Assembly (NCBI GenBank): GCA_045614245.1
Contig: JAZLCM010000016.1
Location: 1-27,746, forward strand
DNA from: Candidatus Enterousia sp.
Lineage (GTDB): Bacteria; Pseudomonadota; Alphaproteobacteria; Rs-D84
Direction of reading: 5' to 3'
DNA length: 27,746 nt
Shown here: piece by piece, positions 544-24,147 of the stretch
Layout: each line of letters starts with the position of its first letter
Numbering within the stretch: position 1 is the first letter of the stretch
The notes under the pieces: generated by a model
Databases searched by the model: none
Told to the model about the DNA's origin: nothing
The model's input: only the letters and a program-made list of their open reading frames with translations
Program-made: the position numbers and the translations under genes

Positions 544-2775
544 ATGAGTAAAGAAATAGTCGAAAGAATTGATTCACAGCAATTGGCGGATGCGCTTTCC
601 ACGCGGTATTTGTCGTATGCGGTCAGTACGATTGTGTCGCGCGCCCTGCCCGATGTGCGCGATGGGTTAAAGCCTGTACATCGCCGCATTTTATATTCTA
701 TGTTACGGCAAAAGTTATCGCCCGCGGCGGCTTTTCGCAAGTGTGCAACGGTTGTTGGCGATGTTTTGGGACACTATCACCCGCATGGCGATTCGTCGGT
801 CTATGACGCGATGGTCAGACTTGCCCAGGATTTTTCCGTACGTTATCCATTGATTGATGGCCAGGGGAACTTTGGAAACATTGACGGCGACCCCCAGGCG
901 GCATACCGTTACACTGAATCCAAAATGACCGATGCGGCAATGCTGATTATGGACGGCATTGACGAAGACAGTGTCGATATGATGCCGAATTTTGACGGCA
1001 CGACGGTTGAACCGGTGGTTATGCCGGGCGCGTTTCCAAACTTGCTTGCGAACGGTGGCATGGGTATCGCGGTTGGTATGGCAACGAATATCCCGACACA
1101 CAATGTTGCAGAGGTTTGCGATGCATTGACATTAATGGTGGACAAACCGGAATCTACAACCGCCCAGGTTATGAAAAAAATGGTCGGGCCGGATTTCCCA
1201 ACTGGTGGTGTGTTGATTGATGATTTTGATACGATTGTTAAAAACTATGATACTGGCAAGGGCGCATTTCGTATTCGCGCACGCTATGAAATCGAAGAAT
1301 TGGACCGTGGCGGGTACCAGATTGTAATTACCGAAATCCCGTACGGAATCATAAAGTCCAAGTTGGTCGAACAAATCGGCGAAATGATTGACGCGAAAAA
1401 ATTGCCGTTGGTTGATGACATTGTTGATGAATCAACAACCGATGTTCGCATTGTGATTACACCAAAAAGTCGTAATGTGCCCGCGGACAAAATGATGGCG
1501 CATTAGTTTGCACTGACCGATTTGGAATATAAATTTAACATGAACTTTAATGTTATCGATTCCAACGGTGCGCCACGCGTTATGGGCATTCGCGATGTTT
1601 TACTTGAATTTATCGCGCATCAAAAAAAGGTTCTTTGTCGGCGGTCGCGGTGGAGATTGGCAAACATTGACCGGCGGTTGGAAATTTTGGGTGGCTTGCT
1701 GGTTGTGTATCTGAATTTGGACCGCGTGATTGAAATCATACGAACCGAAGATGATCCAAAAGCGGTATTGATGGCGGAATTTCAACTTTCGGAGATCCAG
1801 GTTGAATCTATTTTAAATACGCGCCTGCGTGCGTTGCGAAAACTCGAAGAAATGGAAATCCGGCGCGAAGACAAAAACCTGCGCGCGGAACGGGAACAAC
1901 TGGTCGCTTTGTTGCAAGACGAAGAAATTCAAAACAATCAAATAAAGGCGTGGTTTGCCGATATTAAAAAGCAATATGATAAAAAAACCGCGCTTGGGCG
2001 GCGACGCACGACTTGGGCGGCACAAACCGAAGAAATCACCGTCAATGCCGAAGAGTTTATTGAAAAAGAACCATTGACGATAATTCTTTCGACCATGGGT
2101 TGGATACGCGCGGCGCGGGGACATATGGATTTGGGCGCACTGGATTTGAAATTCAAAGAAGGTGACGAGTTGCAATTTGCTTTCCACGCGATGTCCACCG
2201 ATAAAATAAACCTTTTCGGGTCGTCGGGTCGCATGTTCACACTTGCCGCGAACGATTTACCATCGGCACGCGGATTTGGGGAATCGGTGCGCATGATGGC
2301 GGACATCGGCGCGGACGAAGTTATTGTCAACGCGTTTGTATTGGATACCGCGGCAAAGTATTTATTGGTGTCGCGACATGGAAACGGTTTCATTATCGCG
2401 GGCGAAAACTGTTTGGCACAGACGCGCACCGGGAAACAGGTTATGAATGTTGACGACGGTAATCCGGCAAGTTTCTGTGTGCGGGTTACGGGTGACATGG
2501 TGGCGCTTTCGGGATCAAACGATAAAATTTTGATTTTTGCAACGGCAGAGATTCCGGAAATGGTTCGTGGCAAGGGTGTGATTTTGCAAAAATACAATGC
2601 CGAACGAACATATGTTTTGGATGTTATGTTCTTTGACGTGGCGGACGGGTTCGGTTGGACAACGGGTCGCGGGACAACAAAACTTGACGATTGGAAACCA
2701 TGGACGGGCAAACGCGCAACCCAGGGTCGCACAATTCCGGTCGGCTTTCCACGCAGCGGGAAATTTGGGAAATAG
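544..2775 (+). pseudogene. parC: DNA topoisomerase IV subunit A (ParC), full length (743 codons) but interrupted by one in-frame TAG at 1504-1506
   Basis: [50 protein letters not shown], catalytic RYTE; C-terminal beta-pinwheel without a GyrA box, ending GFPRSGKFGK. ORFs 505..1506 and 1522..2775 share one frame. Start taken as ATG 544 (MSKEIV). May be an intact gene with a sequence error. Confidence 0.9.
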
Positions 2776-7034: not shown

Positions 7035-8564
7035 TTAGAAAGCGTACTTTATACCCAAATGCACACCAAAGGATTGCCAATCCGCGGACTTTAACGCTTC
7101 GCTTACATCTTCGGTATGTGCGGGAACCGTTTGCAAGTATGGGAACCCGTTTTCATCAACCGCGTATTGTCCGTTTTCATCAATTACAAATTCTGTATAT
7201 TCCGCCACGTAAAGTTTTCCGGGAATTTTCCCAACATGAAAGAAATTTGTATCAACCTTTAACGCCAAGTGCAACCGCGACGCAAGACGAACATTATATT
7301 CCAATTCGGCGGCATACGTGTACGAATCGTTGGTTCCTTCGTCAAGGAAACTTGGGTTTTGTTGCCAATCGGTCCGGTTCGGCCAAATACCTTCGGATGA
7401 ATACTTTGGCATACCAACCTGGAAATAAAAGCGCAACTTGTCAGCAAGTGTCATTTGTTTTTCTATTTCCAACCCTACATAGAATCCACTCCATGTCGTA
7501 TTGTAAATATGTGTGGTCCCGCCAACCCGTATCGGGCCGTCGCCACCGATAATTACACAGTCACCTTCATACACGCCCCACGGTATATCACCCATAGATG
7601 AATTATAATCTTCGGTTATTAAAACTTCGCCAAGGTATGTTACATACCCCGAAGAAGCACCGTTTTGTGCCACAACCTTGATATCTTCGGGCCCCATACA
7701 TACCTGGTACCAGGTATCGGGCGGTATCACATCAATCGGCAAAGAATAATAATTTCCGTCTTCGTCGCCATAAACATATTCGCCCAAATCCGTCATAAGG
7801 GGTAAATATATCCCCTGGTTCGGGTAAAGGTGATCGGACATTTCCAAATTATGCTTGAAAATTTCATATCCGATTACCGGCGATAATTTCCATCCACCAA
7901 TGTTCCAAATGTGCTTTGCACCGATACCAAGACGCAAATGGTGCGATTCGCCAGATTGACCACCCATAGAAATCGTGAAAATACCGTATGACGGGTCCGA
8001 CCAATCATATGGTTCCAAGTCATAGTCCATGGAAAGACCACCGCTTTCCATTTTACCATAAGAATAATCAGCAAACGCAAACATATCAAAATTGCCAAGC
8101 GAAAGTGTATGACGACCGCCAACATTTACCTCGTTAAAAATCATATCGTCCCATTCAAGTATGGAATTCACACCCGTTTTAAAATCAAAATTTGCAAATC
8201 GACGCGAATATCCGCCATAAAGATATGTTGATGGTTCCTGTTCCGGTGCCATACCAACACCATTTACCGTCATTATTCCCGCATCGGCATATGTCATATT
8301 TTCAACATATTCTTCAATGGTTGGGACCGGCCGATTGCGTCTTTCCGTTGTGTACGAATATGTCCGCGTACCAACAACCTGTTTTTCGCCGGTTTTTCCA
8401 ATATACTTTGTATAACCGGTATCCGCATACTTTCCATATTTTGCTTGATTAGTGCTTACCTTTGCGGGATCTTGATAATAAACAGGCACACCTTCATTGA
8501 CCGCAAAAGCGGCAAAATGAACCAACAGCGCCGGCAGAAAAGATATTATTCCCCTTTTCATCAC
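7035..8564 (-). CDS. Outer-membrane beta-barrel protein, omptin-like
   Basis: Signal peptide (FAAFA), alternating aromatic strands, terminal Phe (GIKYAF). Segments SILEWDDM, GGLSMDYD, IYNTTWSGFYVGL and GIKYAF parallel OmpT SQLDW, GNMVDQDW, YKQRFKMPYIGL and GLKYTF. Confidence 0.65.
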   Translation of the reverse strand: MMKRGIISFLPALLVHFAAFAVNEGVPVYYQDPAKVSTNQAKYGKYADTGYTKYIGKTGEKQVVGTRTYSYTTERRNRPVPTIEEYVENMTYADAGIMTVNGVGMAPEQEPSTYLYGGYSRRFANFDFKTGVNSILEWDDMIFNEVNVGGRHTLSLGNFDMFAFADYSYGKMESGGLSMDYDLEPYDWSDPSYGIFTISMGGQSGESHHLRLGIGAKHIWNIGGWKLSPVIGYEIFKHNLEMSDHLYPNQGIYLPLMTDLGEYVYGDEDGNYYSLPIDVIPPDTWYQVCMGPEDIKVVAQNGASSGYVTYLGEVLITEDYNSSMGDIPWGVYEGDCVIIGGDGPIRVGGTTHIYNTTWSGFYVGLEIEKQMTLADKLRFYFQVGMPKYSSEGIWPNRTDWQQNPSFLDEGTNDSYTYAAELEYNVRLASRLHLALKVDTNFFHVGKIPGKLYVAEYTEFVIDENGQYAVDENGFPYLQTVPAHTEDVSEALKSADWQSFGVHLGIKYAF

Positions 8565-12235: not shown

Positions 12236-13174
12236 ATGGGGAACAAACTTATCGGATATGGATCTTATTTACCGTCGCGCGTCATGACGAACGCAGACTT
12301 TGAACGCGTAATGGATACGACGGACGCGTGGATTGTTGAACGCACCGGGATTCGTGCGCGGCACTTTGCGGCGGAAAATGAAACTGTCGTTGACATGGCA
12401 ACAAATGCGGCGCGCGCGGCGTTGGAAAATGCAAAGATTGGAATTGATGATATCGATATGATAATCGTCGCGACAACAACACCGGAATTGGATTTCCCGT
12501 CTGTTGCGGTGACGGTTGCGGGTCGATTGGGCGCAACGAACAATATGCCGGCTTTTGATGTTCGTGGTGCATGTACGGGGTACATATATGCCCTGCACTG
12601 CGCACGCGGATTTTTCACCGCCGGCATGCATGAAAGAATTATGATAATCGGTGCGGAAAAGATGTCGCGCTTTGTTGACATGAATGACCGTTCTACGGCG
12701 GTTCTGTTCGGCGACGGTGCGGGCGCATTGATATTCGAACGGTCAACTTCAAGTTATTCTGGGATTATCGATACGGTTGTTATGTCGGACGGTAAAAAGT
12801 TCAACATGTTGCATGGGTCGCCCGACCACCGGATTATTATGAACGGACCGGAAACATATAAAATGGCGGTGTCATTAATGCCGGATGCGGCGCGGTATAT
12901 TATGGATCACGCGGGAATTACCCAAGATGACATCGATTGGATTGTTCCGCACCAGGCGAACATAAGGATTATTGAATCCTGTGCGGCGCGGTTGGGTTTC
13001 CCGATTGAAAAGATTTTGATAACGGTGGACAAACACGCGAACACCAGTGGCGCATCTGGCGCGCTGGCGTTGGCATATGCGTTTGACAACGGCATCATAA
13101 AACATGGACAACTTGTCCTTTACCCCGCGTTTGGCAGTGGCCTTACCTGGGGCGCAACATTAATAAGGGTATAA
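12236..13174 (+). CDS. fabH: 3-oxoacyl-ACP synthase III
   Basis: WIVERTGIRARH, GACTGYIY (catalytic Cys), TAVLFGDGAGA, PHQANIRII (His), ANTSGAS (Asn), FGSGLTWG. Confidence 0.96.
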   Translation: MGNKLIGYGSYLPSRVMTNADFERVMDTTDAWIVERTGIRARHFAAENETVVDMATNAARAALENAKIGIDDIDMIIVATTTPELDFPSVAVTVAGRLGATNNMPAFDVRGACTGYIYALHCARGFFTAGMHERIMIIGAEKMSRFVDMNDRSTAVLFGDGAGALIFERSTSSYSGIIDTVVMSDGKKFNMLHGSPDHRIIMNGPETYKMAVSLMPDAARYIMDHAGITQDDIDWIVPHQANIRIIESCAARLGFPIEKILITVDKHANTSGASGALALAYAFDNGIIKHGQLVLYPAFGSGLTWGATLIRV

Positions 13175-13191: not shown

Positions 13192-13482
13192 ATGGCAACG
13201 ATGACAAGAAATGATTTAGCAATGAAATTGCGCGATAAATTTGGATTTACCGCGGCACAGTCGGGAAAACTGGTCGATTTGATATTCGATGAAATATGTG
13301 AATCGCTGGTTAACGGTGAAGAGGTTAAATTCGCCGGGTTCGGCACATTCAAGATATTGGATAAATCTGCGCGTGTTGGTCGCAACCCAAAGACCGGCGA
13401 AATGGCAATTATAACGGCGCGTCGTGTTGTGACATTCCACCCCAGCAATGAATTCCGCGACCGCGTATCAAACGGAAAGTGA
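13192..13482 (+). CDS. ihfA: Integration host factor subunit alpha (HU/IHF family)
   Basis: VKFAGFGTF, GRNPKTGE, RRVVTFHPS; lies after fabH as ihfA does in alphaproteobacteria; GGGGG Shine-Dalgarno. Confidence 0.85.
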   Translation: MATMTRNDLAMKLRDKFGFTAAQSGKLVDLIFDEICESLVNGEEVKFAGFGTFKILDKSARVGRNPKTGEMAIITARRVVTFHPSNEFRDRVSNGK

Positions 13483-13584
13483 TGACAATTTTTTGTCATG
13501 GCTGTCCTGAAACAAGTTCAGGATGACAATAAACAAGTTTAGAATGACAAAACAACCCTATTCCGGGTCAAGCCCGGAATGACA
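13482..13584. repeat. Cluster of REP-like palindromic elements tagged with ATGACA (TGTCAT on the minus strand)
   Basis: ATGACAA-TTTT-TTGTCAT (13482-13499); TCCTGAA-ACAAG-TTCAGGA-TGACA (13505-13528); half copy AAACAAGTTTAGAATGACA (13531-13549); ATTCCGGG-TCAAG-CCCGGAAT-GACA (13560-13584). Confidence 0.8.
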
Positions 13585-13603
13585 AAGAGAAAATACTACA
13601 AAC

Positions 13604-13630
13604 AAAACGGGCGCAACCGCGCCCGTTTTT
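13604..13630. terminator. Bidirectional intrinsic terminator
   Basis: Perfect 11 bp inverted repeat AAAACGGGCGC-AACC-GCGCCCGTTTT between convergent ihfA and the giant-protein operon. Confidence 0.9.
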
Positions 13631-13637
13631 ATTGCGC

Positions 13638-13945
13638 CTACCGCACCAAGTTTGCACATCTATAATTTTGGATATTCGTTGACAAATAACCTACGATACA
13701 AGATTCGTCACCCGATATTCTTGAATGCATAACAATGTTGCTTGTTGCTGTAATAGGACCGATTGGTGTATGCACTCATGCACCATTTTCGTACACAAAA
13801 CATAATCGTAAGCAACTAAAGTTTTATCACTGGAGCATGATAATTTATATGCACAAGAAATTTGTCCAGATACAAGTGGAAATTTAGCAACGGTAACACC
13901 GTTTAATCCACTAATATCCGGACAAAAGAAACCTTCATTTGTTAC
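13638..13945 (-). pseudogene. Degraded C-terminal repeat of the upstream Cys-rich protein (two frameshifts plus a TGA)
   Basis: The +1 frame gives EGFFCPD...SCAYKLSC, matching the gene's FxCP...CxYxxxC repeats. The original frame resumes VYENGA*VHTP...SCIVGYLSTNIQNYRC and ends at TAG 13638-13640, next to the terminator. Confidence 0.7.
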
Positions 13946-16832
13946 CCTGCCCTGTGCCACTATTAGGAGTGCACACATATTTACCAAATTCTGTTGTCAA
14001 ATAGTACAGACTTTGGTAAGCACCGTATCCATCCGTGCAATTACTTGCTATACATCTAACTTTGCCTACATTACCAGACACAGGATCATTATTATACGAT
14101 AACGTTCCTGGAGAATAATCACCATTACAATAAATGTTATATTCACACAAAAGTCCCGTTTGTGTTGGTAACGCAGGCGATACACTCGGATCTGCACCGT
14201 TAAAATTCGGGCATGTAAAACAACCCAATGAAGCAAACCTGGTGTTTAACTTTCCTTTAACACAGGCCATATTATCACTGCCATCACCATTACAACTAAT
14301 GTCCATAGTATTATTAATATAACTTGTTAAATCTGCGTCAGATGGTATAGAACTAAATCTATATGGATAGGTTCCATTTGGATCGTATACCGCCCCATTG
14401 TTGCAAGCAACAGTATACTTACACTTTTTAGCGGGATAATCGGAATCGTCGACTTTTTCGCGACTCACAATTTGCATACCTGATGGTAAAGTCAAATCAG
14501 ATGGACACACAAAAGCATAATTTGCGCAGTACTGTGTAGCATTGTTACCACATTTACCTGGCTCGCTCTCGCATGATTCAATACATAACTCATAGTTAGA
14601 TCTACAATATCTGTGCCCTGTGGTTTCATTACGTACCAAAGTATATCCCTCATTGCATTGCAAACGTTTGCAATCCCCCCACAAAGTTCCTGTATTGTTA
14701 TTGTCATATTGTATGGTTTGATCACCTATAACGTCCACACACGTACCATTTGTCGCTTCACATAAATCACAAACAAAACCTTTAACATTGGCTACGACTT
14801 CTATGCCAAAACTACTCTGACCACATGCTAAGCTATGATTTGGGCTGAAGTATTTATTATTAAGCCGTAAATATCTCAGTTGATATCCATTTGTATGACT
14901 ATTGAAATTATCCGTACTTAGAAAATGATAAGTAGAACCATATGTACAACTATCGCCAAAATTATACGAAAACTCAACGACATCAGCATATTGATTAACA
15001 AATGAATAGTTAATATCTACACTGGTACCTGTACCAGAGGTGCAAACCGGCTGATATGATTGATACGTGTCTGTTGTTACACTGTTACTTCCACTGCAAG
15101 ACGTCGTATACTGCACATCACCACGTCCATATGACGTACCACTCTGTCCATTAATGAGTAACGAACAACTTGCACCTTCCCCTGGCGCACAATTCTTTGC
15201 CCATGCACCATAAAGTGTAATGTCATATTCAGTCATCGGGTCTGAATTCGGAACGCATACGCTATAAATCGTAGAATAAGGAGAGCCTATGACCATTTCC
15301 CTATTATTTGGGTTTCCAACCCCAAAACCATTTACAGGTGCACCGGCATTCGTATTTTTCGTAGCAAACCATTTTATATCACTATCATCCAAATAATATC
15401 CACGGAAAGTCCAACCAATCGCCTTTGGTTGCGGAATCCCCCATATCAAATCATTTGTCTGTGCAGGTGTATAATTACCATTTGGCACACACACCTGCTG
15501 ATTTTCTTGGCTGCCATCGTCATTGGTAACAACTTGGGTTATATAGGTACATCCAAGTGATTCGTTCAAACATATACTCATGCCATTAGTGCCCTCATAT
15601 TGCTTGTCACAAGGACATTGATAATAATAGTAATGAACAGTTGTTTGTTGTCCATCTACGTATTCTAATCTATTAAAAGAACGATCTTCACATCCAGAGC
15701 ATCTTGTGCAATCAGTTGTTGAAGGCAAATAATACATTACCTCTGGTGGTATTGCACCTTCGCTAGTAAACCAGCAACCATGTTCACGACAATATAACAC
15801 GTGATGTGTTGTTGTGTTTGGTCCACCAGAATGTAACCATTCTGGGGTAACACTGATGTTACCGTTACTATTTGTAGAAAAACTTACATTGCTTGGTGCA
15901 GTATACGTACCCATATATGGTTCATGATAAGTTTGCGAATACCTTGAATACCACAAATTGTTATGATAATAATGCGTACCGTCTATATAATCTGCATTAG
16001 CGGAATTTGAATCATAGTACATATAGTAATACATTTTATTTACAAAATCACTTGTAAGATTGAAACCTTGTATCTCCGCAGTGCCACTAGGATTATAATC
16101 ATATAATTTGATTGTTCCTGTTTTTATACATTTCTGCTCTTCCGCATTAACATAATCTGGATTAATTGTTGTACCATTTTTATCTACATAAACCGTGTTT
16201 TCATCAACGCATGTTCCTTTGGAATTCATGGTAGCGCGTGCATCGTTATCGCAAGTATATTTTGCAATATATTTTTGGGTTGTTGCGGTTCCCACGGTTA
16301 CGATTGGACTTGCCGTAGAATCGCTTGCACCTTCGGCATAAAATCCGACCAACTTTGCATTATCAGAACGCGTGACACCCGCCGACAATATCAAATCCCC
16401 GGGGTGCATTGCCATGGTGGATTGTGTGAAACTAACCGGCAACGATCCGCCCTTCATATCCAATGTTACGGTTACTAATTGTTCTGATGCCGGAATGACC
16501 GAACCGGTTAGTGGTGTTCCGCCTGAGGTGGCGCCTATAAGTGCGTTACGGATCTGTTCATCTGCATAAGCGGTTGTATTTGGTGTTCCATCGGCATTAA
16601 ATAATTTTATGGTGCGACTGCCAACGGTAACATTTAGACCCTGTGCCCCACTGGGCAAAGTGATACTATTTACTTTATTGGTCTGCGTACAACATTGACC
16701 GGTCCCAGGTTGACTGCGACACAGGCTAAGCCCCGCACATGTATCCGGAACAACATTCAACCAGTACGTGGTCGCGGTGGCGGCACCAGTTACAAAACAT
16801 CCACAAATCGAATAAATACAATACTTTTTCAT
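13935..16832 (-). CDS. Large secreted Cys/Tyr-rich repeat protein with InlB B-repeat-like segments, unknown function
   Basis: Long ORF (track gives start 16841; ATG 16832 has AGGATGA upstream); signal peptide MKKYCIYSICGCFVTGAATA; PQPKAIGWTFRGYY...ITLYGAW resembles the Listeria-Bacteroides repeat; C-terminal ~97 aa repeats. Confidence 0.85.
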   Translation of the reverse strand: MKKYCIYSICGCFVTGAATATTYWLNVVPDTCAGLSLCRSQPGTGQCCTQTNKVNSITLPSGAQGLNVTVGSRTIKLFNADGTPNTTAYADEQIRNALIGATSGGTPLTGSVIPASEQLVTVTLDMKGGSLPVSFTQSTMAMHPGDLILSAGVTRSDNAKLVGFYAEGASDSTASPIVTVGTATTQKYIAKYTCDNDARATMNSKGTCVDENTVYVDKNGTTINPDYVNAEEQKCIKTGTIKLYDYNPSGTAEIQGFNLTSDFVNKMYYYMYYDSNSANADYIDGTHYYHNNLWYSRYSQTYHEPYMGTYTAPSNVSFSTNSNGNISVTPEWLHSGGPNTTTHHVLYCREHGCWFTSEGAIPPEVMYYLPSTTDCTRCSGCEDRSFNRLEYVDGQQTTVHYYYYQCPCDKQYEGTNGMSICLNESLGCTYITQVVTNDDGSQENQQVCVPNGNYTPAQTNDLIWGIPQPKAIGWTFRGYYLDDSDIKWFATKNTNAGAPVNGFGVGNPNNREMVIGSPYSTIYSVCVPNSDPMTEYDITLYGAWAKNCAPGEGASCSLLINGQSGTSYGRGDVQYTTSCSGSNSVTTDTYQSYQPVCTSGTGTSVDINYSFVNQYADVVEFSYNFGDSCTYGSTYHFLSTDNFNSHTNGYQLRYLRLNNKYFSPNHSLACGQSSFGIEVVANVKGFVCDLCEATNGTCVDVIGDQTIQYDNNNTGTLWGDCKRLQCNEGYTLVRNETTGHRYCRSNYELCIESCESEPGKCGNNATQYCANYAFVCPSDLTLPSGMQIVSREKVDDSDYPAKKCKYTVACNNGAVYDPNGTYPYRFSSIPSDADLTSYINNTMDISCNGDGSDNMACVKGKLNTRFASLGCFTCPNFNGADPSVSPALPTQTGLLCEYNIYCNGDYSPGTLSYNNDPVSGNVGKVRCIASNCTDGYGAYQSLYYLTTEFGKYVCTPNSGTGQGNK

Positions 16833-16863
16833 TTTTATCATCCTGTTGTTTTAAAATTCGACA

Positions 16864-19800
16864 CTAATCTACATTGACCGGAATATATTGTGGTTGCACA
16901 CTGTTACTCCATTGTGCCATGCATGTTGTTGTTCCGGTTATTGTTATACTGTCATTCGGTTCATAGTTGTTGTTGGCACAGAGCCAACCGCTAAGTGTGT
17001 ATCCGTCGCGTGTGCACCAAGTAGAATCCAAGTTAAACGGCGTATTGGTTGACTTATCAAGGGGACTTGTAATACCGTTAAGTTCCCCAGCACCACAATT
17101 AACCGTTAATTTTACCGTTTGTGCGTCGCCGCTACCCGCGGACTGATATTGTGCCGTGCAGGTCAAAAATTCCCCGGGTTCCACAGAAAATGTAGTGGTA
17201 TTTGAATTTGATGTACCACCATAATTTTGACCCAAACTGGACACGCAAGACCATTGATACGGCAGATAACCCGTTGGCGCGGTGCAGTAGTGGTCCATTG
17301 GTTGTAGGTTAGATACGGTACGGTCATTGGTATTTACGACAAAGTGACGTGTAACACCAGCTATTGACGTACCTTCGCCGCATTCAAGTTGCAATTCACC
17401 CGGCAAGATGCATTGTGCGTAACAAGCCACCGAAGTATTGGGAATAAGATCAACCGAACCAGTGCCGTAATCACCCAAGGAATTTAAATTAACCACACCA
17501 TTTGGTGAACATGTCCATTCTTGGGCACCCCCATTGGCAAAAAAGACAGGAACAGTGACTGTGGAATCACCACACGAATAGGTTTCGGGTTTGGTTTGGT
17601 TGCATTGTTCTGTTTGACCATTAGCTATTGCAAATGTTACAGAACATTCATCTTCGTCGGAACTACAAACCGGAGTAAGGGTTTGGACAACATCTGGGTT
17701 TAATAGCAAATTATCAGTCGGCCCAATACCCGATGGAGATTTTTTGTTTGATGCTGTATTTGACCATCCTGTAATAGTTCCACTTGTGCAAGAACACAAA
17801 TTACCCGACAATGTCATTGAGGCCGCCGGGGTTTGAATGGTGTATATGTTTCCAGCGGCGCCAAGTGTTCCCGTACCGTTGGAAGCGTGAGCCAACGCGG
17901 CAAGCGCGCCTTGGTTCAAGGTTGCGGGATTGTCCGCGTCGTCCGAGTCGCATTTAAACTGAACGATTGACTGACTAAGAGCCGGTGTCTGGCAATCGCT
18001 CTCACTTGTAACACATTCGTGGGTATAATCACACCAATATGGGGTAGCGTCGGGACATGCCTCGTCCATGTAGAGCGGGAAACAGGTTTTGTTGGCGACT
18101 ATATCAGAAAGCGTATATGGCGCGGGTTGCCAACTACCTGTGTTAATATAATTGTTACCCCAGGTCATATTACCACCATTCACACAATACCACTTTTCGG
18201 TGTCAATGGTATTATTGTCTTTTCTGCATAAAGTTGTGGATAACGTATAGTTGCCGCCATTCGTCACGTTGGTTTGATATACACCGTTAGATAATTGCGT
18301 CCATGTTCCGCTTGCCTGATCGGAAGAATTAAACGCTCCATCGCGACAATTCACCGTAAGTGTGTGATTGTTTTCGGGTTCGTCTTCGGGCGGATTACAA
18401 GTTACATTACAATTAACATCGGCGTTAGGCATATAGAATGTACTTTGTGACATCGCTTGATTATTAACATAACATGCTATGTTTTTTACACTATACCCCG
18501 AAGGGATTTTACTATTGGCTATGGTACCTATGTTCACATTGGTATTGTATGCATATGAAAGTGTTTGAGGTGCCGAAACACCACAATCACTATAATTTAT
18601 AAACAAGTTGTGTGTACCATTATCGCCACCAACATTTCCGCCACCGGAACATGTCACATAGCAATCAACATCAGCCGCCGGCATGCTGAATTTGTAACTC
18701 TGCATACTTATTTCTGTGGTGCCTTGATAACATTGTATGTTATCTATTGAATAACCCTGGGGCAAATCCCCAGTGGCTATACTATACACATTTACAGTTT
18801 CATCCTGTGACGGGGTAGGGTTAAGAACGTGGTTACCTCGACCACAGCTTTGTTGGTTGTATTTCAATGTAAATGCGTACCCGTCGTCGTCGGTTCCACC
18901 ATCACCGGAACATTTACCACCTTCACAGTCATAATTTGCAAAACATGTTATCGATGAGTTAACAGTAACTTGTTCTCCCGCAGTATATGTTTCACTGCCG
19001 CATACATACTCAACAGCCTCATTACTATCAGAATCTTTACATAAACCGCCCGCTAAGGTAAAAATGAAACTATTATCACCACTTCCTATGGGCGATTTCC
19101 TGAAACTTCCGGAGTGTCCAGTACCAGAAACCCAAATATATTCCGTATGGGACGTGCTATAATTACCATTAAACGTATTTCCTGATCCACAATCTATAGT
19201 TACTGTCGGATAAGGGTTAGAACCATCATTGTCATAACAAACTGCTGTACAGGTTGTTGATTGTGTCAGTCCATAAGCGCTAATGTTATCCAATCTCCCT
19301 ATTCCTGTTTCTCCACCCAATTCATTTAATCCATCTTCTAATGGGTCGCTATTAACACAAGACCATGTCTGCAAATCAACACCTGTAGCAAATCTAAGGT
19401 TCGTTGATGTTGTCGAATTACAGGCAACAATAATCGGATTAGCCGTTCCACATCCAACACCAGGTTGGAATATCACTTTGCAATCATTGCCTGCGCCTTC
19501 CGAGCTATAACAAATCGCAGTACAAGTTGTAGATTGAGTTATTCCATAAGTACTAAGTGGTTCTAACATTCCAAGCCCAGCCCCATTACCCAATGAATTC
19601 AAAACTGTTTCTAAATTATCATTATTTGGACAGGACCACACTTGTACACTATCATTGTCGTCAGAAACGAACCCATGTATAGCCGTTCTTGATGTTTTAT
19701 CACATGGAATTATAAGCTGACTAGCGGAACCACATCCGTTACCTGGTGCAAGTGTCACTTGACAAGTATCCCCGCTACCAGGACAAGCACCGACAACACA

Positions 19801-22410
19801 AACACCATCGCACCATGTACCTCCATGCTCTTCACACTCATATTGCCCGCCACCTGTGCAGTAAGTGGTATATTCCGACAGGGACGAATAACAGCTTGAC
19901 CTTGATGCGCACCAATATCCGCCGTTTGAACCGCAATCTGACTTGCTGTCACAATACCTCAATGTAGTTGGGGTGCATTGAATTGTGGAACTTTTGATAG
20001 CCAAACAATCCGGTGTTGTATAGTTATACAGCAACCCTTGGACCCAGCAATTCATTTCCGTTGGTGTTGGTGTGTCGATTGAATATCCGTTCACCGACAT
20101 ACAGGTTACAACCTGGGCGCGACATGCGTTAACCGCAATATTTGCCTTGGTCGTGTTGGTCGTTGTTTCCAAACCTGCCTCCCATTCGTTTGGATCTTCT
20201 TCGGGATACCCATTTTGCGACAAACACGATGTAACATCCGCCACGCATGTTTCGGCGTATTCAGACAAAATCGCATCCTGTTTCGCCTTTATCTGGACCA
20301 AAACGCGCCCCAGGTATTGTTTGATAACATCGTTTTCTTCGTTATATGTCGCGGAAGTTCCCTTGCCGGTGTATGTATAGTCTTGGCATTTATTCAACAC
20401 CGATATGCACATACCATAGTTGCGACCTTCCTTGGCATCAACATAACCGATTTTGTTTTGCAAGTATTGTGACATATTTTCACTGGCGTTTTTCGCGGTA
20501 CCTTTTTTAACCGTTTTTTCGATATAGTTCACAAGGTTATCGCCATAGCCAGTGCCACTGCCCCATGCGTTGTTCTGGGCATAGGTGCTTGGATATTGTT
20601 CATACGTTGGACCATCGTCGTTACCAGTGTGTTCCGTACACGTTTCACCTGGGAAATCCCATGTGCGGTAAAGATTCACACGGCAAACATCACTGGTCAT
20701 AACACTGGCGACACGTTCACGCAATTCTGGGTCGATGGCATGACCGGGTTGACTGCCCACCACGATTTCGCCGTTCACGATATAGCGGCCCGTCGGGTCA
20801 AGGCAATTTTCATATTCCGAACCACAAACAAAATCATCCTGCATACATTCATCCAAGGCATTGATACAACCACGCATGTCGTATGTATTTTTCTGTTGCG
20901 CGACCATCAAACGCGCCTTTTGCAAAACGTTCTTTGCGTTACGGACCGTCGCCAGCATTTCGTCGTTCGAATCGTTCAAACTGCGTTCGTACATGATACA
21001 TTCGCGGTCAATTTCCAAATCGTACGCGTTGGTAATAAGCGATGCATCAACACCACGCGCCGTACAAGCCTTTATCACAGATGTTTTGCAACGCGCCGCC
21101 GCGGTTTTATATAACTGTTCCCCGCGTTGGTTGTTGACACTGTTCGTGTTTGATGTGCCGAACAAAGAACCCAAATCGAAACCGGTACTGTCGAAAGAAA
21201 ATTCTAAAAGACCGGACAAATCGAAACCAAAGTCAGATCCCGCATTGCTTGTTGCGCCACCGGATTTAACATCGATTATCATGTCCTTTATCTTGTCAAG
21301 ACTTGTTTGCAATTGACTTGTATCCTTGCCCGCCGATTGCATCGCCGCCTCGGCCGCGGTTTGCGTAAACAAACTTTCTACTTCACGCTTGGTAAGTCCA
21401 ATGTATTGAATCTTTTGCGCGACATCTTGCAATTCTTCGGTTGCGGATTTTAACGCTGCCTCGGCCTTGGCATAGTTTTTCAGATTTGCACTGCAACTGC
21501 ACCGACCCTGGTTATCATCCAAGACATTACAATAGTTATCCATGCACGATGCATATTGCGCCTTGCAATAATCGGTCATTTCCGCAAGGTCGTCCATATC
21601 CTCCATCGACATTGCGACCGATGTTTCAGTCAAAGTCGACATACGCGTTGTCGGTGTCCGAATAGATGCAGATTTATAAAGTTTGGTGCCCGTGCTGTCT
21701 ATACCAGTGACAACCTGTGCAGTTCCAACACTGTTTTTGTTCGCCGCACCAACATATTGCGCCCGCACCGATGGACGCGACGCATCAGTTGTTGCCGCAC
21801 GTGACACATTTGTTGTGGCCCGCGCACCAGTCGCACGACCCGCCGTTGTTGCCGTACGTGCAACCCCAGACTTAACCGATGCGGTTGTTGTTGCCGCAGT
21901 ACGCGACGCACCACCCGTTGCACGCGCCGCCGCCGCACGCGTCGCCGCGGTATTCGTTGTTGACCTTGTTGATGTAGTCGCGGTTGTTGTTGTACGCGGT
22001 GAAACATTTGTTGCCGCACGTGAATTTACCGCACGATTTGCCGCCGCACGCGAAGCGTTTGTGCCCGTCGTACCACGCGACGCGACCACGCGCGAAGAAT
22101 TTCCCGCCGCCGTTCCACGACCCGATGCACCGGCCAAAGATGACGCAGGCATTGCACGTGTCGATGTTGAACGATTTGCCACAGGCGTGCCACTTACCGG
22201 TTGACGCGAAATCTTAACCGGTGTTTTCGGTGCAACCGTTTCGGTTGTTTCCTCGACAACTTCTTCGTCCGGAATTATCAAAAATCCATTTTCATCGTAC
22301 ATCGCGTCGGTGTATTCCAGCGCGTTTTCATCGTCGATGAAGATTGGTGCAACCTCAGCAAATGCGGGCATTACCAGCAATCCACCAATAAATATAGCAA
22401 GTCGTTTCAT
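16864..22410 (-). CDS. Giant (1848 aa) secreted Cys-rich modular protein, unknown function
   Basis: AAGGAAGG Shine-Dalgarno; signal peptide ending AFA; Arg/Ala/Thr low-complexity region; helical Cx6C core; about 10 C-terminal repeat modules, the last (RDGYTLSGW...TTTCMAQW) resembling an InlB B-repeat. Confidence 0.9.
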   Translation of the reverse strand: MKRLAIFIGGLLVMPAFAEVAPIFIDDENALEYTDAMYDENGFLIIPDEEVVEETTETVAPKTPVKISRQPVSGTPVANRSTSTRAMPASSLAGASGRGTAAGNSSRVVASRGTTGTNASRAAANRAVNSRAATNVSPRTTTTATTSTRSTTNTAATRAAAARATGGASRTAATTTASVKSGVARTATTAGRATGARATTNVSRAATTDASRPSVRAQYVGAANKNSVGTAQVVTGIDSTGTKLYKSASIRTPTTRMSTLTETSVAMSMEDMDDLAEMTDYCKAQYASCMDNYCNVLDDNQGRCSCSANLKNYAKAEAALKSATEELQDVAQKIQYIGLTKREVESLFTQTAAEAAMQSAGKDTSQLQTSLDKIKDMIIDVKSGGATSNAGSDFGFDLSGLLEFSFDSTGFDLGSLFGTSNTNSVNNQRGEQLYKTAAARCKTSVIKACTARGVDASLITNAYDLEIDRECIMYERSLNDSNDEMLATVRNAKNVLQKARLMVAQQKNTYDMRGCINALDECMQDDFVCGSEYENCLDPTGRYIVNGEIVVGSQPGHAIDPELRERVASVMTSDVCRVNLYRTWDFPGETCTEHTGNDDGPTYEQYPSTYAQNNAWGSGTGYGDNLVNYIEKTVKKGTAKNASENMSQYLQNKIGYVDAKEGRNYGMCISVLNKCQDYTYTGKGTSATYNEENDVIKQYLGRVLVQIKAKQDAILSEYAETCVADVTSCLSQNGYPEEDPNEWEAGLETTTNTTKANIAVNACRAQVVTCMSVNGYSIDTPTPTEMNCWVQGLLYNYTTPDCLAIKSSTIQCTPTTLRYCDSKSDCGSNGGYWCASRSSCYSSLSEYTTYCTGGGQYECEEHGGTWCDGVCVVGACPGSGDTCQVTLAPGNGCGSASQLIIPCDKTSRTAIHGFVSDDNDSVQVWSCPNNDNLETVLNSLGNGAGLGMLEPLSTYGITQSTTCTAICYSSEGAGNDCKVIFQPGVGCGTANPIIVACNSTTSTNLRFATGVDLQTWSCVNSDPLEDGLNELGGETGIGRLDNISAYGLTQSTTCTAVCYDNDGSNPYPTVTIDCGSGNTFNGNYSTSHTEYIWVSGTGHSGSFRKSPIGSGDNSFIFTLAGGLCKDSDSNEAVEYVCGSETYTAGEQVTVNSSITCFANYDCEGGKCSGDGGTDDDGYAFTLKYNQQSCGRGNHVLNPTPSQDETVNVYSIATGDLPQGYSIDNIQCYQGTTEISMQSYKFSMPAADVDCYVTCSGGGNVGGDNGTHNLFINYSDCGVSAPQTLSYAYNTNVNIGTIANSKIPSGYSVKNIACYVNNQAMSQSTFYMPNADVNCNVTCNPPEDEPENNHTLTVNCRDGAFNSSDQASGTWTQLSNGVYQTNVTNGGNYTLSTTLCRKDNNTIDTEKWYCVNGGNMTWGNNYINTGSWQPAPYTLSDIVANKTCFPLYMDEACPDATPYWCDYTHECVTSESDCQTPALSQSIVQFKCDSDDADNPATLNQGALAALAHASNGTGTLGAAGNIYTIQTPAASMTLSGNLCSCTSGTITGWSNTASNKKSPSGIGPTDNLLLNPDVVQTLTPVCSSDEDECSVTFAIANGQTEQCNQTKPETYSCGDSTVTVPVFFANGGAQEWTCSPNGVVNLNSLGDYGTGSVDLIPNTSVACYAQCILPGELQLECGEGTSIAGVTRHFVVNTNDRTVSNLQPMDHYCTAPTGYLPYQWSCVSSLGQNYGGTSNSNTTTFSVEPGEFLTCTAQYQSAGSGDAQTVKLTVNCGAGELNGITSPLDKSTNTPFNLDSTWCTRDGYTLSGWLCANNNYEPNDSITITGTTTCMAQWSNSVQPQYIPVNVD

Positions 22411-22436
22411 GGTAAATTTTTCCTTCCTTTACGAAA

Positions 22437-22466
22437 AGTTTACCATTTTATTGAAAATTAACGCAA
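22437..22466 (-). promoter_or_regulatory. Putative sigma70 promoter of the giant-protein operon
   Basis: TTGCGT, 18 nt spacer, TAAACT with TGn extension. Confidence 0.55.
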
Positions 22467-22531
22467 GCGAAAAATGAATACTTTTTCTAAAAAAATTTAT
22501 TTTTGTGAATTGTATCCTTTGGCGTTTTGAC

Positions 22532-22560
22532 TTGCGAATAAAAAGGTGACTTGATATAAT
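22532..22560 (+). promoter_or_regulatory. Putative sigma70 promoter of the phospholipase D gene (leaderless)
   Basis: TTGCGA, 17 nt spacer, TATAAT with TGn extension; ATG begins 7 nt after the -10 hexamer. Confidence 0.65.
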
Positions 22561-22566
22561 CGCAAT

Positions 22567-24147
22567 ATGACCAAGAAAAAGTTTTTTTTGTCACGAATAA
22601 TGTTTCCTTTTTTGGGTTGCGCAATCCCGACCAGTATGAAAGACGAAAGACTTTCGAACTATGTTCCAAAAATAACCGATAAAGATTTTGAATACAATCC
22701 AATCGATACACCAATTGCAAAGGTTTATAAAAAAGAACTTACCGATGGCACAAACATAAGTGGCGCAACACTTATCGACGACGGACTTTCTGCGTTCATT
22801 ATTCGCGCCGCGTTCGCACGCATGGCAACCAAGACTATTGATTTACAGACATATATATACAGTAACGATTTTTCCGCACATGTTTTAATAAGTGAACTTA
22901 AAAATGCCGCCGACCGCGGGGTCAAGGTAAGAATTCTTATCGACGATTACGGAACAAATTCCGACATCGCGGATGTTATCGTTTTGAACCAGCATCCAAA
23001 TATCGAAGTCAAAATTTTTAATGCGGTGAAACATCGGTCGCGACTTTTGTATTATCCGCAAATACTTATGGATTTTAATCGGCTTAATTCGCGCATGCAT
23101 AATAAACTTTTTATTATTGATAATGTCGCACTGATTACCGGTGGTCGAAATATAGGCAGTAATTATTTCATGCCGGAAACCGCCGCGAACTTTTCCGACA
23201 CTGATGTTTTATTCATTGGCGAAATAACACGCGGCGCAACCAAAAGTTTCGATGATTATTGGAACTTTGAATTGTCTGTGCCGGCGTCGGTTATTCCAAA
23301 GGCTTGTTCCGCGCGCGCGATGCAAAAACTTAGTCGACATTTTAGACGCCAAGAACAAATCGGAACAAAGAATATAAAACGATACGACAAAATTATTTCA
23401 CTTGTTGTGCGCGAATATAAACACAAAAATTTTGATTTTTCGTGGGGTCGCGGACGATTCTTGGCGGATGCACCAAGCAAAGTGCAAATGCCAATGAACA
23501 AAAAAGAAACCTATCGCGGGCAAATTATGCGTATGCTTAATAAACTTTGGCGCGACACGAAAACATGCGCCTATGTTTCCGCCGCATATTTTGTTCCGGG
23601 ACGTGGTGGCATGCAAATGATGCAACGTGAAGAAAAATCCGGTGTTCATGTTACCATTGTAACAAATTCTTTGGCATCAACAAATGCACCGACCGTTTTT
23701 GCAAAATGGGAAAAGTATCGAAAAAAACTTATTCGCGATGGAATTGATGTTTACGAATTTATGTCTTCGGCGGAAAATCGGCGCGGTCGAAAACACGACC
23801 GTATGCGAAAGCAATCAAGTTTTTCCGTAATGCACAGTAAAACCATCGTATTCGATGATAAAATTTCATGGATAGGCAGTTTTAATCTTGACCCGCGCAG
23901 CACATATTATAACACCGAAAATGTCGCGATATTTGAAAGCGCAGAGTTTGCAACAAAACTGCGTAATATGATTATCGAAGACACTGAAACTTCGTGGCAT
24001 GTAACAATCGACGAAAACAAAACGACTTGGATGGGGTTACGTGGTGGTGATAATGTCGCGCGAGTGTATAATCACGACCCCGACACAACAATTTTTAGAC
24101 GCATTTTTAAAACTATTGCAAAAATTATTCCGGAAAAATATGTCTAA
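22567..24147 (+). CDS. Phospholipase D family protein, cardiolipin synthase ClsC/YmdC-like
   Basis: Two HKD motifs (MHNKLFIIDNVALITGGRNIG; MHSKTIVFDDKISWIGSFNLDPRS), IDLQTYIY, AADRGVKVRILIDD, VTIVTNSLASTN. Confidence 0.9.
   Translation: MTKKKFFLSRIMFPFLGCAIPTSMKDERLSNYVPKITDKDFEYNPIDTPIAKVYKKELTDGTNISGATLIDDGLSAFIIRAAFARMATKTIDLQTYIYSNDFSAHVLISELKNAADRGVKVRILIDDYGTNSDIADVIVLNQHPNIEVKIFNAVKHRSRLLYYPQILMDFNRLNSRMHNKLFIIDNVALITGGRNIGSNYFMPETAANFSDTDVLFIGEITRGATKSFDDYWNFELSVPASVIPKACSARAMQKLSRHFRRQEQIGTKNIKRYDKIISLVVREYKHKNFDFSWGRGRFLADAPSKVQMPMNKKETYRGQIMRMLNKLWRDTKTCAYVSAAYFVPGRGGMQMMQREEKSGVHVTIVTNSLASTNAPTVFAKWEKYRKKLIRDGIDVYEFMSSAENRRGRKHDRMRKQSSFSVMHSKTIVFDDKISWIGSFNLDPRSTYYNTENVAIFESAEFATKLRNMIIEDTETSWHVTIDENKTTWMGLRGGDNVARVYNHDPDTTIFRRIFKTIAKIIPEKYV

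Follow-up and report, generated by a model that had tools for sequence, protein, structure and literature searches.

The window, a stretch of 27,746 nucleotides from Candidatus Enterousia sp., is the whole of a 27.7-kb contig (C16) from a genome of 857 kb that is 93% complete. Its minus strand carries two large co-oriented genes, A and B, which are the subject of this analysis. Gene A (P0001, 16864..22410) encodes a protein of 1848 aa with 84 Cys (4.5%), and gene B (P0002, 13935..16841 as assembled) encodes one of 968 aa with 49 Cys (5.1%); the genome mean is 1.3% over open reading frames (ORFs) of at least 300 aa. Together the two products amount to 2816 aa and 30% of the window, in agreement with an earlier note on this DNA, which had counted about 2800 aa of Cys-rich protein in roughly 30% of it. 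The signal peptides were called by reading the sequence. The N-terminus of A is MKRLAIFIGGLLVMPAFA/EV, a Sec type-I signal peptide, and that of B is MKKYCIYSICGCFVTGAATA/TT, a Sec-type signal peptide. The gap between the genes measures 22 nt if B begins at its first ATG and 31 nt if it begins at the second (MKKY...); the second is the likeliest start, agreeing with the N-termini of homologues and with an AGGA at proper spacing.

The two signal peptides, the strong Shine-Dalgarno sequence of A, the 22-31 nt gap and the shared terminator described in the earlier note are all borne out by the sequence (Table 1). Its claim that the pair has its own promoter held only in part: a candidate -35/-10 pair is present, but it scores only 9/12 and promoter-like matches are not enriched, with 22 found against 24 expected from shuffled sequence. 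The two genes are probably co-transcribed. Adjacency alone is insufficient ground for claiming that their products bind each other, and any cooperation between them is putative.

Table 1. Features of the A/B locus, as positions in the window or, where so marked, as protein residues.
Feature	Position	Strand	Remarks
Candidate promoter, TTCGCA-18-TACAAT	22509..22538	-	Spacer of 156 nt between A and the divergent phospholipase D (PLD)/cardiolipin-synthase-like gene
Shine-Dalgarno of A, AAGGAAGGA	22421..22429	-	10 nt before the ATG at 22410
A residues 1-18, signal peptide (AFA/EV)	22357..22410	-	Sole hydrophobic window in A
A residues 19-262, acidic for a short stretch, then a basic low-complexity spacer without Cys, rich in T/A/S/R/G	21625..22356	-	
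A residues 263-812, conserved Cys-patterned, mostly helical core	19975..21624	-	Alignments A1, A2
Family signature domain of 274 aa (first part of core)	20764-21600	-	Alignment A1
A residues 813-1848, hypervariable tail	16867..19974	-	Short Cys-dense linker, about nine Cys-stapled modules, two unassigned segments
A tail modules	Residues 881-973, 976-1064, 1070-1160, 1178-1266, 1268-1350, 1512-1568, 1587-1667, 1675-1756, 1769-1834		
B residues 123-198, Flg_new-like module	16248-16475	-	Found with the module profile
B, second module look-alike	Residues 472-552	-	
B, repeats of about 97 aa (FVCP/FTCP)	13938-14513	-	
Out-of-frame continuation of B (third C-terminal repeat)	13638..13934	-	+1 frame 13933-13694; original frame 13772-13641; restored stop 13640-13638
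Intrinsic-terminator hairpin	13604..13629	-	11-bp stem (7 GC pairs) and 4-nt loop between an A tract and a T tract

Conserved core and variable tail of gene A

The first part of the core of A is a signature domain with the invariant pattern C-x6-C-M-D-x2-C ... R-C-x-C-S, followed by later conserved Cys pairs. In a 41-sequence alignment 16 Cys are invariant. Disulfides probably form in both A and B, and about nine conserved Cys pairs would hold the core. Residues 271-549 of A scored 342 bits against the profile of alignment A1, a profile that includes this segment of A. In the spacer that precedes the core, residues 61-262 consist of 21% T, 20% A, 13% S and 11% R, with a net charge of +25, and the DNA that encodes the spacer is rich in GC. 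Of the 10 paralogues having an N-terminus, 9 likewise show a signal peptide and then a basic spacer. Several antisense ORFs of 150-170 aa overlie the spacer of A (20596-22204, plus strand); they resemble by-products of its composition (GC 0.51 vs about 0.42).

The core was modelled with AF2 from the 41-sequence alignment. The model is largely helical, with a predicted local distance difference test score (pLDDT) of 74 overall and mostly above 85 over residues 250-530, and it served, as one 551-residue model, as the single query for the fold searches. Foldseek gave no match in the PDB, and the only matches among the AFDB clusters were two members of the same family. VIA-wide returned generic helical bundles with Z of at most 9.5, which is below the chance level for helical models. 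No usable match was obtained in the ESM/language-model atlas, and no Pfam family or NCBIfam model matched the core. From the predicted fold, no function could be read.

The core domain occurs in 11 ORFs of the genome, A included; the ten others were recovered by blastp. A profile search of 1.84 billion representative proteins gave 828 clusters at E<=1e-3, of which 491 also passed E<=1e-30, and the clusters looked up were unnamed or 'hypothetical'. All 121 sampled genomes of the same family contained the core, with 9-20 matches each. Among the sister families of the order 27 of 29 genomes matched, with 1-11 matches each and much weaker E-values, and none of 298 other alphaproteobacterial genomes did so at E<=1e-5. 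As judged from these sequences, the core family is lineage-wide and expanded, with 13-20 copies in the genomes of the Enterousia group, and as far as sampled it is confined to the Enterousia order. A genome-wide count, which the earlier note had proposed, gave in addition to the 11 core-domain ORFs a wider set of about 40 Cys-rich ORFs, most with signal peptides, which make up about 8% of the genome.

Comparison of A with 80 orthologous loci gave identities of 65-88%. An orthologue of A was located at 79 related loci and is divergent from cls, the PLD/cardiolipin-synthase-like gene, in 58 of them; A is thus the cls-adjacent orthologue of the core family. The shortest complete orthologue (n=72) has 671 aa and the longest 1755, the median being about 760, and A, with its 1848 aa, is longer than any of them. 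These lengths indicate that the ancestral gene was essentially the core alone. Most orthologues are a bare core of about 700 aa and have no second gene. One or more Cys-rich secreted genes, sometimes two or three, lie downstream at 23 of the 72 loci, and all 23 belong to the closest clade.

The earlier note had taken A and B for a self-contained two-gene system that makes a surface layer (S-layer), a filament or a pair of adhesins and is exported or anchored by an unrecognised route of its own. The two genes are indeed adjacent, in the same orientation, separated by a small gap and closed by one terminator, no known route was detected for them, and a pair is kept at the 23 related loci. Against this, A stands alone as a core of about 700 aa without the tail array at 49 of the 72 complete loci, its ten paralogues elsewhere in the genome have no B-like partners, and the unit holds no extra export gene. 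We consider such a system very unlikely. The claim that the pair is an undescribed system was not supported either, because the core is shared by 11 ORFs and by the whole lineage and because the repeats are recognisable as Listeria-Bacteroides (Flg_new) repeats. What is undescribed in the searchable literature is the core family and the architecture as a whole; the module type is already known.

The alignment of A with 12 of its orthologues shows, at the level of sequence, a sharp boundary between a conserved and a hypervariable part near residue 800. Over residues 751-800 the identity is 66-90% (84-90% to the nine closest orthologues), whereas from residue 801 onward it is at most 28% to the same 12 proteins. 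In 13400-22700 the only repeats found were short degenerate ones in the low-complexity spacer; long repeats, whether direct or inverted, were absent, as was anything resembling a cassette or a shufflon. A switch by inversion or cassette exchange at the A/B locus was considered and dropped for want of such repeats. Rearrangement of the locus within the genus is indicated by fabH, whose strand relative to A/B differs between close relatives. This gene (12236-13174) and A/B lie on opposite strands in L013-L023 but share a strand in L024-L034, and the earlier note had suggested a possible 13.5-kb inversion.

Tail modules and gene B

What, then, is the variable tail made of? BLAST self-comparison had given no internal repeats, and the repeats were found with iterated hidden Markov models (HMMs). 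Iterated HMMs together with hhalign joined the module types of A to one profile. When the modules were compared with PF09479 (Flg_new), 9 of 42 aligned homologous modules matched at E<0.01, the best with an E of 1e-7. The best module of A itself reached 21.4 bits against the 27-bit cut-off of PF09479 and 20.4 bits against 20.95 for TIGR02543, and two family members, P0038 (56 bits) and P0088 (33 bits), pass the PF09479 cut-off. Whole A and B gave sub-threshold matches only to Pfam and NCBIfam (FTA4, Glyco_hyd_101C and Flg_new), and the module profile searched against PDB sequences reached 2y5p at E 0.064 only.

A module model built from the alignment had a pLDDT of 90. Among 48,161 chains its top structural match was with a sialidase of Treponema denticola, in its N-terminal domain (Z 6.2, 2.1 Å, 61 residues); the InlB B-repeat (2y5p/7pv9) took rank 2-3 (Z 4.6, 3.0 Å, 61/68 residues); the Listeria lmo0835 domain came lower. 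The Z values are modest, as expected at 68 residues, and Foldseek with the module model gave no match at E<=0.001. The profile and structural matches together lead to the conclusion that the tails are Cys-stapled forms of a known adhesin-type beta-grasp repeat. The profile searches and structure predictions proposed in the earlier note were thus informative for the modules, which are Flg_new-like and of beta-grasp type, but not for the core, which has no fold match outside its own family. Outside the core family, two further large Cys-rich ORFs, C22 (L095:2-3250; 1083 aa, 7.6% Cys) and C51 (L096:890-4201; 1104 aa), have near-threshold matches to Flg_new, and one of them also matches Ephrin_rec_like, a Cys repeat of the type found in furin and in variant-specific surface proteins (VSPs), weakly.

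In B, the module at residues 123-198 matches the module profile with an hhalign probability of 86% and an E of 5e-6, and the rest of B gave no match. The remainder consists of other Cys-rich segments, for which annotation searches with B cut into nine pieces returned nothing usable. Three relatives of B are in the database, at 37-41% identity, and no match to B was found in 60 genomes of the genus and order. HMMs of B segments do recover B-like genes, in the form of 13-32 proteins of related loci.

The annotated stop of B (13935) is premature, as had also been pointed out earlier. About 95 more codons follow in the +1 frame, the original frame being regained near 13797-13800, and the pieces of this continuation match, in the same order, two parts of the orthologue P0004, namely residues 981-1012 (E 2e-5) and 1047-1063 (E 0.003). 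The frame breaks could be an assembly error or a real truncation. If they are real mutations, B or even the whole expanded tail region might be decaying and non-functional in this strain, in keeping with two frame changes and a premature stop within the last 300 nt or so of B and with a parC ORF split at 1504-1506 on the same contig. Against decay stand the 968 open codons in B and all 1848 in A, the even or near-even Cys counts and the intact signal peptides. In a contig assembled from a metagenome, two shifts that compensate each other over 140 nt could be assembly errors, and the truncated B loses only the last of its three C-terminal repeats. We regard decay as highly improbable.

Export, oxidation and neighbouring genes

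A and B were searched for signs of a known route to the cell surface. At E<=1 neither matched an autotransporter, RTX or anchor domain of Pfam, and neither has a C-terminal beta-barrel translocator; the C-termini are Flg_new-like or Cys repeats, and A ends in ...IPVNVD with no aromatic terminal residue. There is no GGxGxD motif in A or B, and both have Sec signal peptides, unlike RTX substrates. An LPxTG-like motif and a C-terminal hydrophobic segment are likewise absent from both, and no 19-residue window with a Kyte-Doolittle hydropathy of at least 1.4 occurs in either outside the signal peptide of A, so that neither has a transmembrane (TM) helix. A has no lipobox. In B, residues 12-15 form a lipobox-like ICGC with a non-canonical -2 position. 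Further hydrophobic residues come after it and then a type-I site, ATA/T; in relatives, the B-like proteins lack a lipobox and their AxA sites are clear. Going by sequence, the ICGC most likely belongs to the hydrophobic core of a signal peptide of type I. The absence of barrel, RTX repeats, LPxTG, lipobox and C-terminal TM helix stated in the earlier note therefore stands in full for A and, with this one qualification, for B.

The supposition of an unrecognised export or anchoring route also stands, in so far as no characterised family or known route was matched for A or B and no full-length match to a characterised family with known export was found. A conserved C-terminal sorting motif, a possibility raised in the earlier note, was looked for among the Cys-rich ORFs and paralogues of the genome, and none was seen. 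The Dsb and type II secretion (T2SS) genes that it had asked about were found in part. A DsbA-like protein of thioredoxin fold, membrane-anchored by an N-terminal TM helix, is encoded on contig C111 (L094), and no DsbB or VKOR was found. A type IVb-pilus-like set comprises a PilN-family secretin with TcpQ on C41 (L093), and a PilO-like protein, a GspE/PilB-type (T2SSE) ATPase and a T2SSF platform protein on C62 (L100). The genome also encodes LspA, BamA and three TolC-like proteins. None of the DsbA-like, LspA, BamA, TolC-like or pilus-type genes is linked to the A/B locus, and in a closed relative the pilus-type ATPase and secretin are 120 kb apart.

The genes around A/B are of alphaproteobacterial type (OlsB, ParC, MltB, ProS, PlsX and FabH). 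ParC is represented by two ORFs (505-1506 and 1522-2775), the second of which covers positions 317-736 of the ParC model; an in-frame amber codon at 1504-1506 had been pointed out earlier. At 7035-8564 on the minus strand lies a gene for a 509-aa protein whose C-terminal 166 residues match the Pfam family Pom (Protochlamydia outer membrane protein) with an E of 2e-12, and in relatives too this gene adjoins radical-SAM and M13 peptidase genes. P0163 (24818-25726, minus strand) encodes 302 aa, in which a coiled-coil stretch and a C-terminal domain containing Cys accompany what is either a signal peptide or a TM helix. Its counterparts between plsX and cls in relatives are longer (389-604 aa) and Cys-rich.

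Possible roles and comparison with known systems

Bacteria of the genus Enterousia (order Rs-D84) are sub-megabase, non-respiring fermenters without standard transporters (PMC12306168). They are predicted to depend probably on partner cells and have many hypothetical envelope proteins (PMC12306168). With moderate confidence, we take A and B to be hypervariable surface or extracellular recognition proteins. This reading is based on the sharp junction between scaffold and tail, the adhesin-type modules, the gain and loss of accessory genes and the predicted partner dependence. Of the earlier proposal it keeps the exported, Cys-rich, modular proteins of adhesin type and gives up the self-contained operon.

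Members of the family begin with a Sec signal peptide, continue with the basic T/A/S/R spacer that lacks Cys and the helical core of about 550 aa, and close with a C-terminal tail that can be replaced. In this species the tail of A has expanded to about nine Cys-stapled modules, and B, which is probably co-transcribed, has been added downstream. In the proposed mechanism, Sec would carry A and B across the inner membrane, signal peptidase I would cleave them, and oxidation would follow in the periplasm, where the DsbA-like protein may act; their final place would be the cell surface or the surroundings of the cell. The conserved core might then be a stalk or scaffold, and recognition of a ligand, which could be a partner cell, host mucus or a glycan, would fall to the fast-changing array of modules. 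Both the surface location and the binding function are presumed.

Several points weigh against the recognition reading. A itself falls just below the curated Flg_new thresholds, and its core has no fold relative that hints at a role. Since no anchor was found, A and B could be periplasmic or released. With the reading frame broken in its tail, B may be undergoing decay in this strain or be cut short. Neither DsbB nor VKOR was found in the 93%-complete genome, and the organism is a non-respiring anaerobe without an evident source of oxidant.

Alternatively, A and B might be structural envelope proteins that, by analogy with the chlamydial outer membrane complex, form a disulfide-cross-linked lattice in the periplasm or at the outer membrane; it would stiffen a reduced-genome cell and have no outside ligand. 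The large share of the genome given to about 40 Cys-rich ORFs (about 8%), the strict conservation of Cys positions in the core and the failure to find an outer-membrane export signal would suit a lattice; the basic spacer could bind anionic envelope polymers, a lipid-metabolism gene adjoins A and a Pom-like porin is nearby. In a lattice, tails that lose alignable similarity between species of one genus would be unexpected, as would the gain and loss of whole genes, and it is in surface adhesins that Flg_new modules typically occur. The cells also have peptidoglycan machinery, with MltB encoded in the window and MreB, RodA and MrdA reported in the lineage (PMC12306168). On balance, this analysis makes a lattice appear unlikely.

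If A and B are instead released as soluble factors, for which the type IVb-pilus-type secretin is a possible exit, they could act at a distance in binding, scavenging or antagonism. TcpF of Vibrio cholerae leaves by such a secretin. The absence of an anchor in A and B, the presence of genes for a PilN-type secretin, TcpQ, PilO, a GspE/PilB-type ATPase and a platform protein, and the extracellular stability to which disulfide-rich domains are suited are consistent with release. The pilus genes are nonetheless on other contigs than A/B with no link between them, and are themselves 120 kb apart in the closed relative; the 13-20 paralogues with a conserved basic spacer and core look more like a displayed scaffold, and no enzyme or toxin domain was found. 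Release of this kind is improbable in our view.

Returning to recognition, a bolder version can be entertained, though we hold it with low confidence. The core family, which occupies several per cent of every Enterousia genome, would be a contact apparatus by which these non-respiring, transporter-poor cells attach to partner cells and live off them, a disulfide-stapled helical stalk with swappable beta-grasp arrays that folds without DsbB or VKOR in an anaerobe and passes the outer membrane by a new route, possibly the type IVb-pilus secretin.

The Enterousia order is widespread and uncultured in rumen, human and bird guts. A family kept at 13-20 copies in tiny genomes, without described relatives and with a hypervariable end, is an obvious candidate for the mediator of partner dependence. 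The defined core and the variable boundary offer a handle for antibodies, metaproteomic searches, the finding of partners and strain typing.

The Cys content of 4.5-5% in A and B recalls the VSPs of Giardia and ciliates, to which the earlier note had likened it. The likeness proved superficial: there is no CxxC in A and there are four in B, a C-terminal TM anchor is lacking, and no VSP or furin-like Pfam family matched. Weak Ephrin_rec_like matches do occur in other Cys-rich ORFs of the genome and in one family member. Reduced-genome bacteria have variable surface families of their own, namely the chlamydial Pmp proteins, the rickettsial Sca autotransporters and the variable lipoproteins of mycoplasmas. 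With these the core family shares the many paralogues in a very small genome, the combination of a conserved part with a fast-changing exposed part, and the predicted partner dependence. It differs in that A and B have no autotransporter barrel and, the lipobox-like ICGC of B aside, no sign of a lipoprotein anchor, in that they have no homology to any of these families, and in that no repeat-mediated or inversion switch was seen at the A/B locus.

The OmcA and OmcB proteins of the chlamydial outer membrane complex are Sec-exported Cys-rich envelope proteins of a small-genome diderm, as A and B would be. Neither sequence nor Pfam matches connect the two, the Enterousia family is helical with a hypervariable tail, and the lineage has peptidoglycan shape genes (PMC12306168).

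A further comparison is with the Listeria-Bacteroides repeats themselves. The tail of A and at least one module of B share with them the pattern V-x-F/C-x-x-N/G-G-G ... G-x-x-F-x-G-W ... L/C-x-A-x-W, the predicted beta-grasp fold, a module size of about 70-90 aa and the occurrence as tandem arrays in exported adhesin-like proteins. Here the repeats are found in a diderm alphaproteobacterium, and A and B have no leucine-rich repeats (LRR), GW, LPxTG or other known anchor. Most modules carry three to four Cys at hydrophobic core positions, so that L-Y-A, for example, becomes T-C-T-A, and the modules are joined to a helical Cys core that is absent from described Flg_new proteins.

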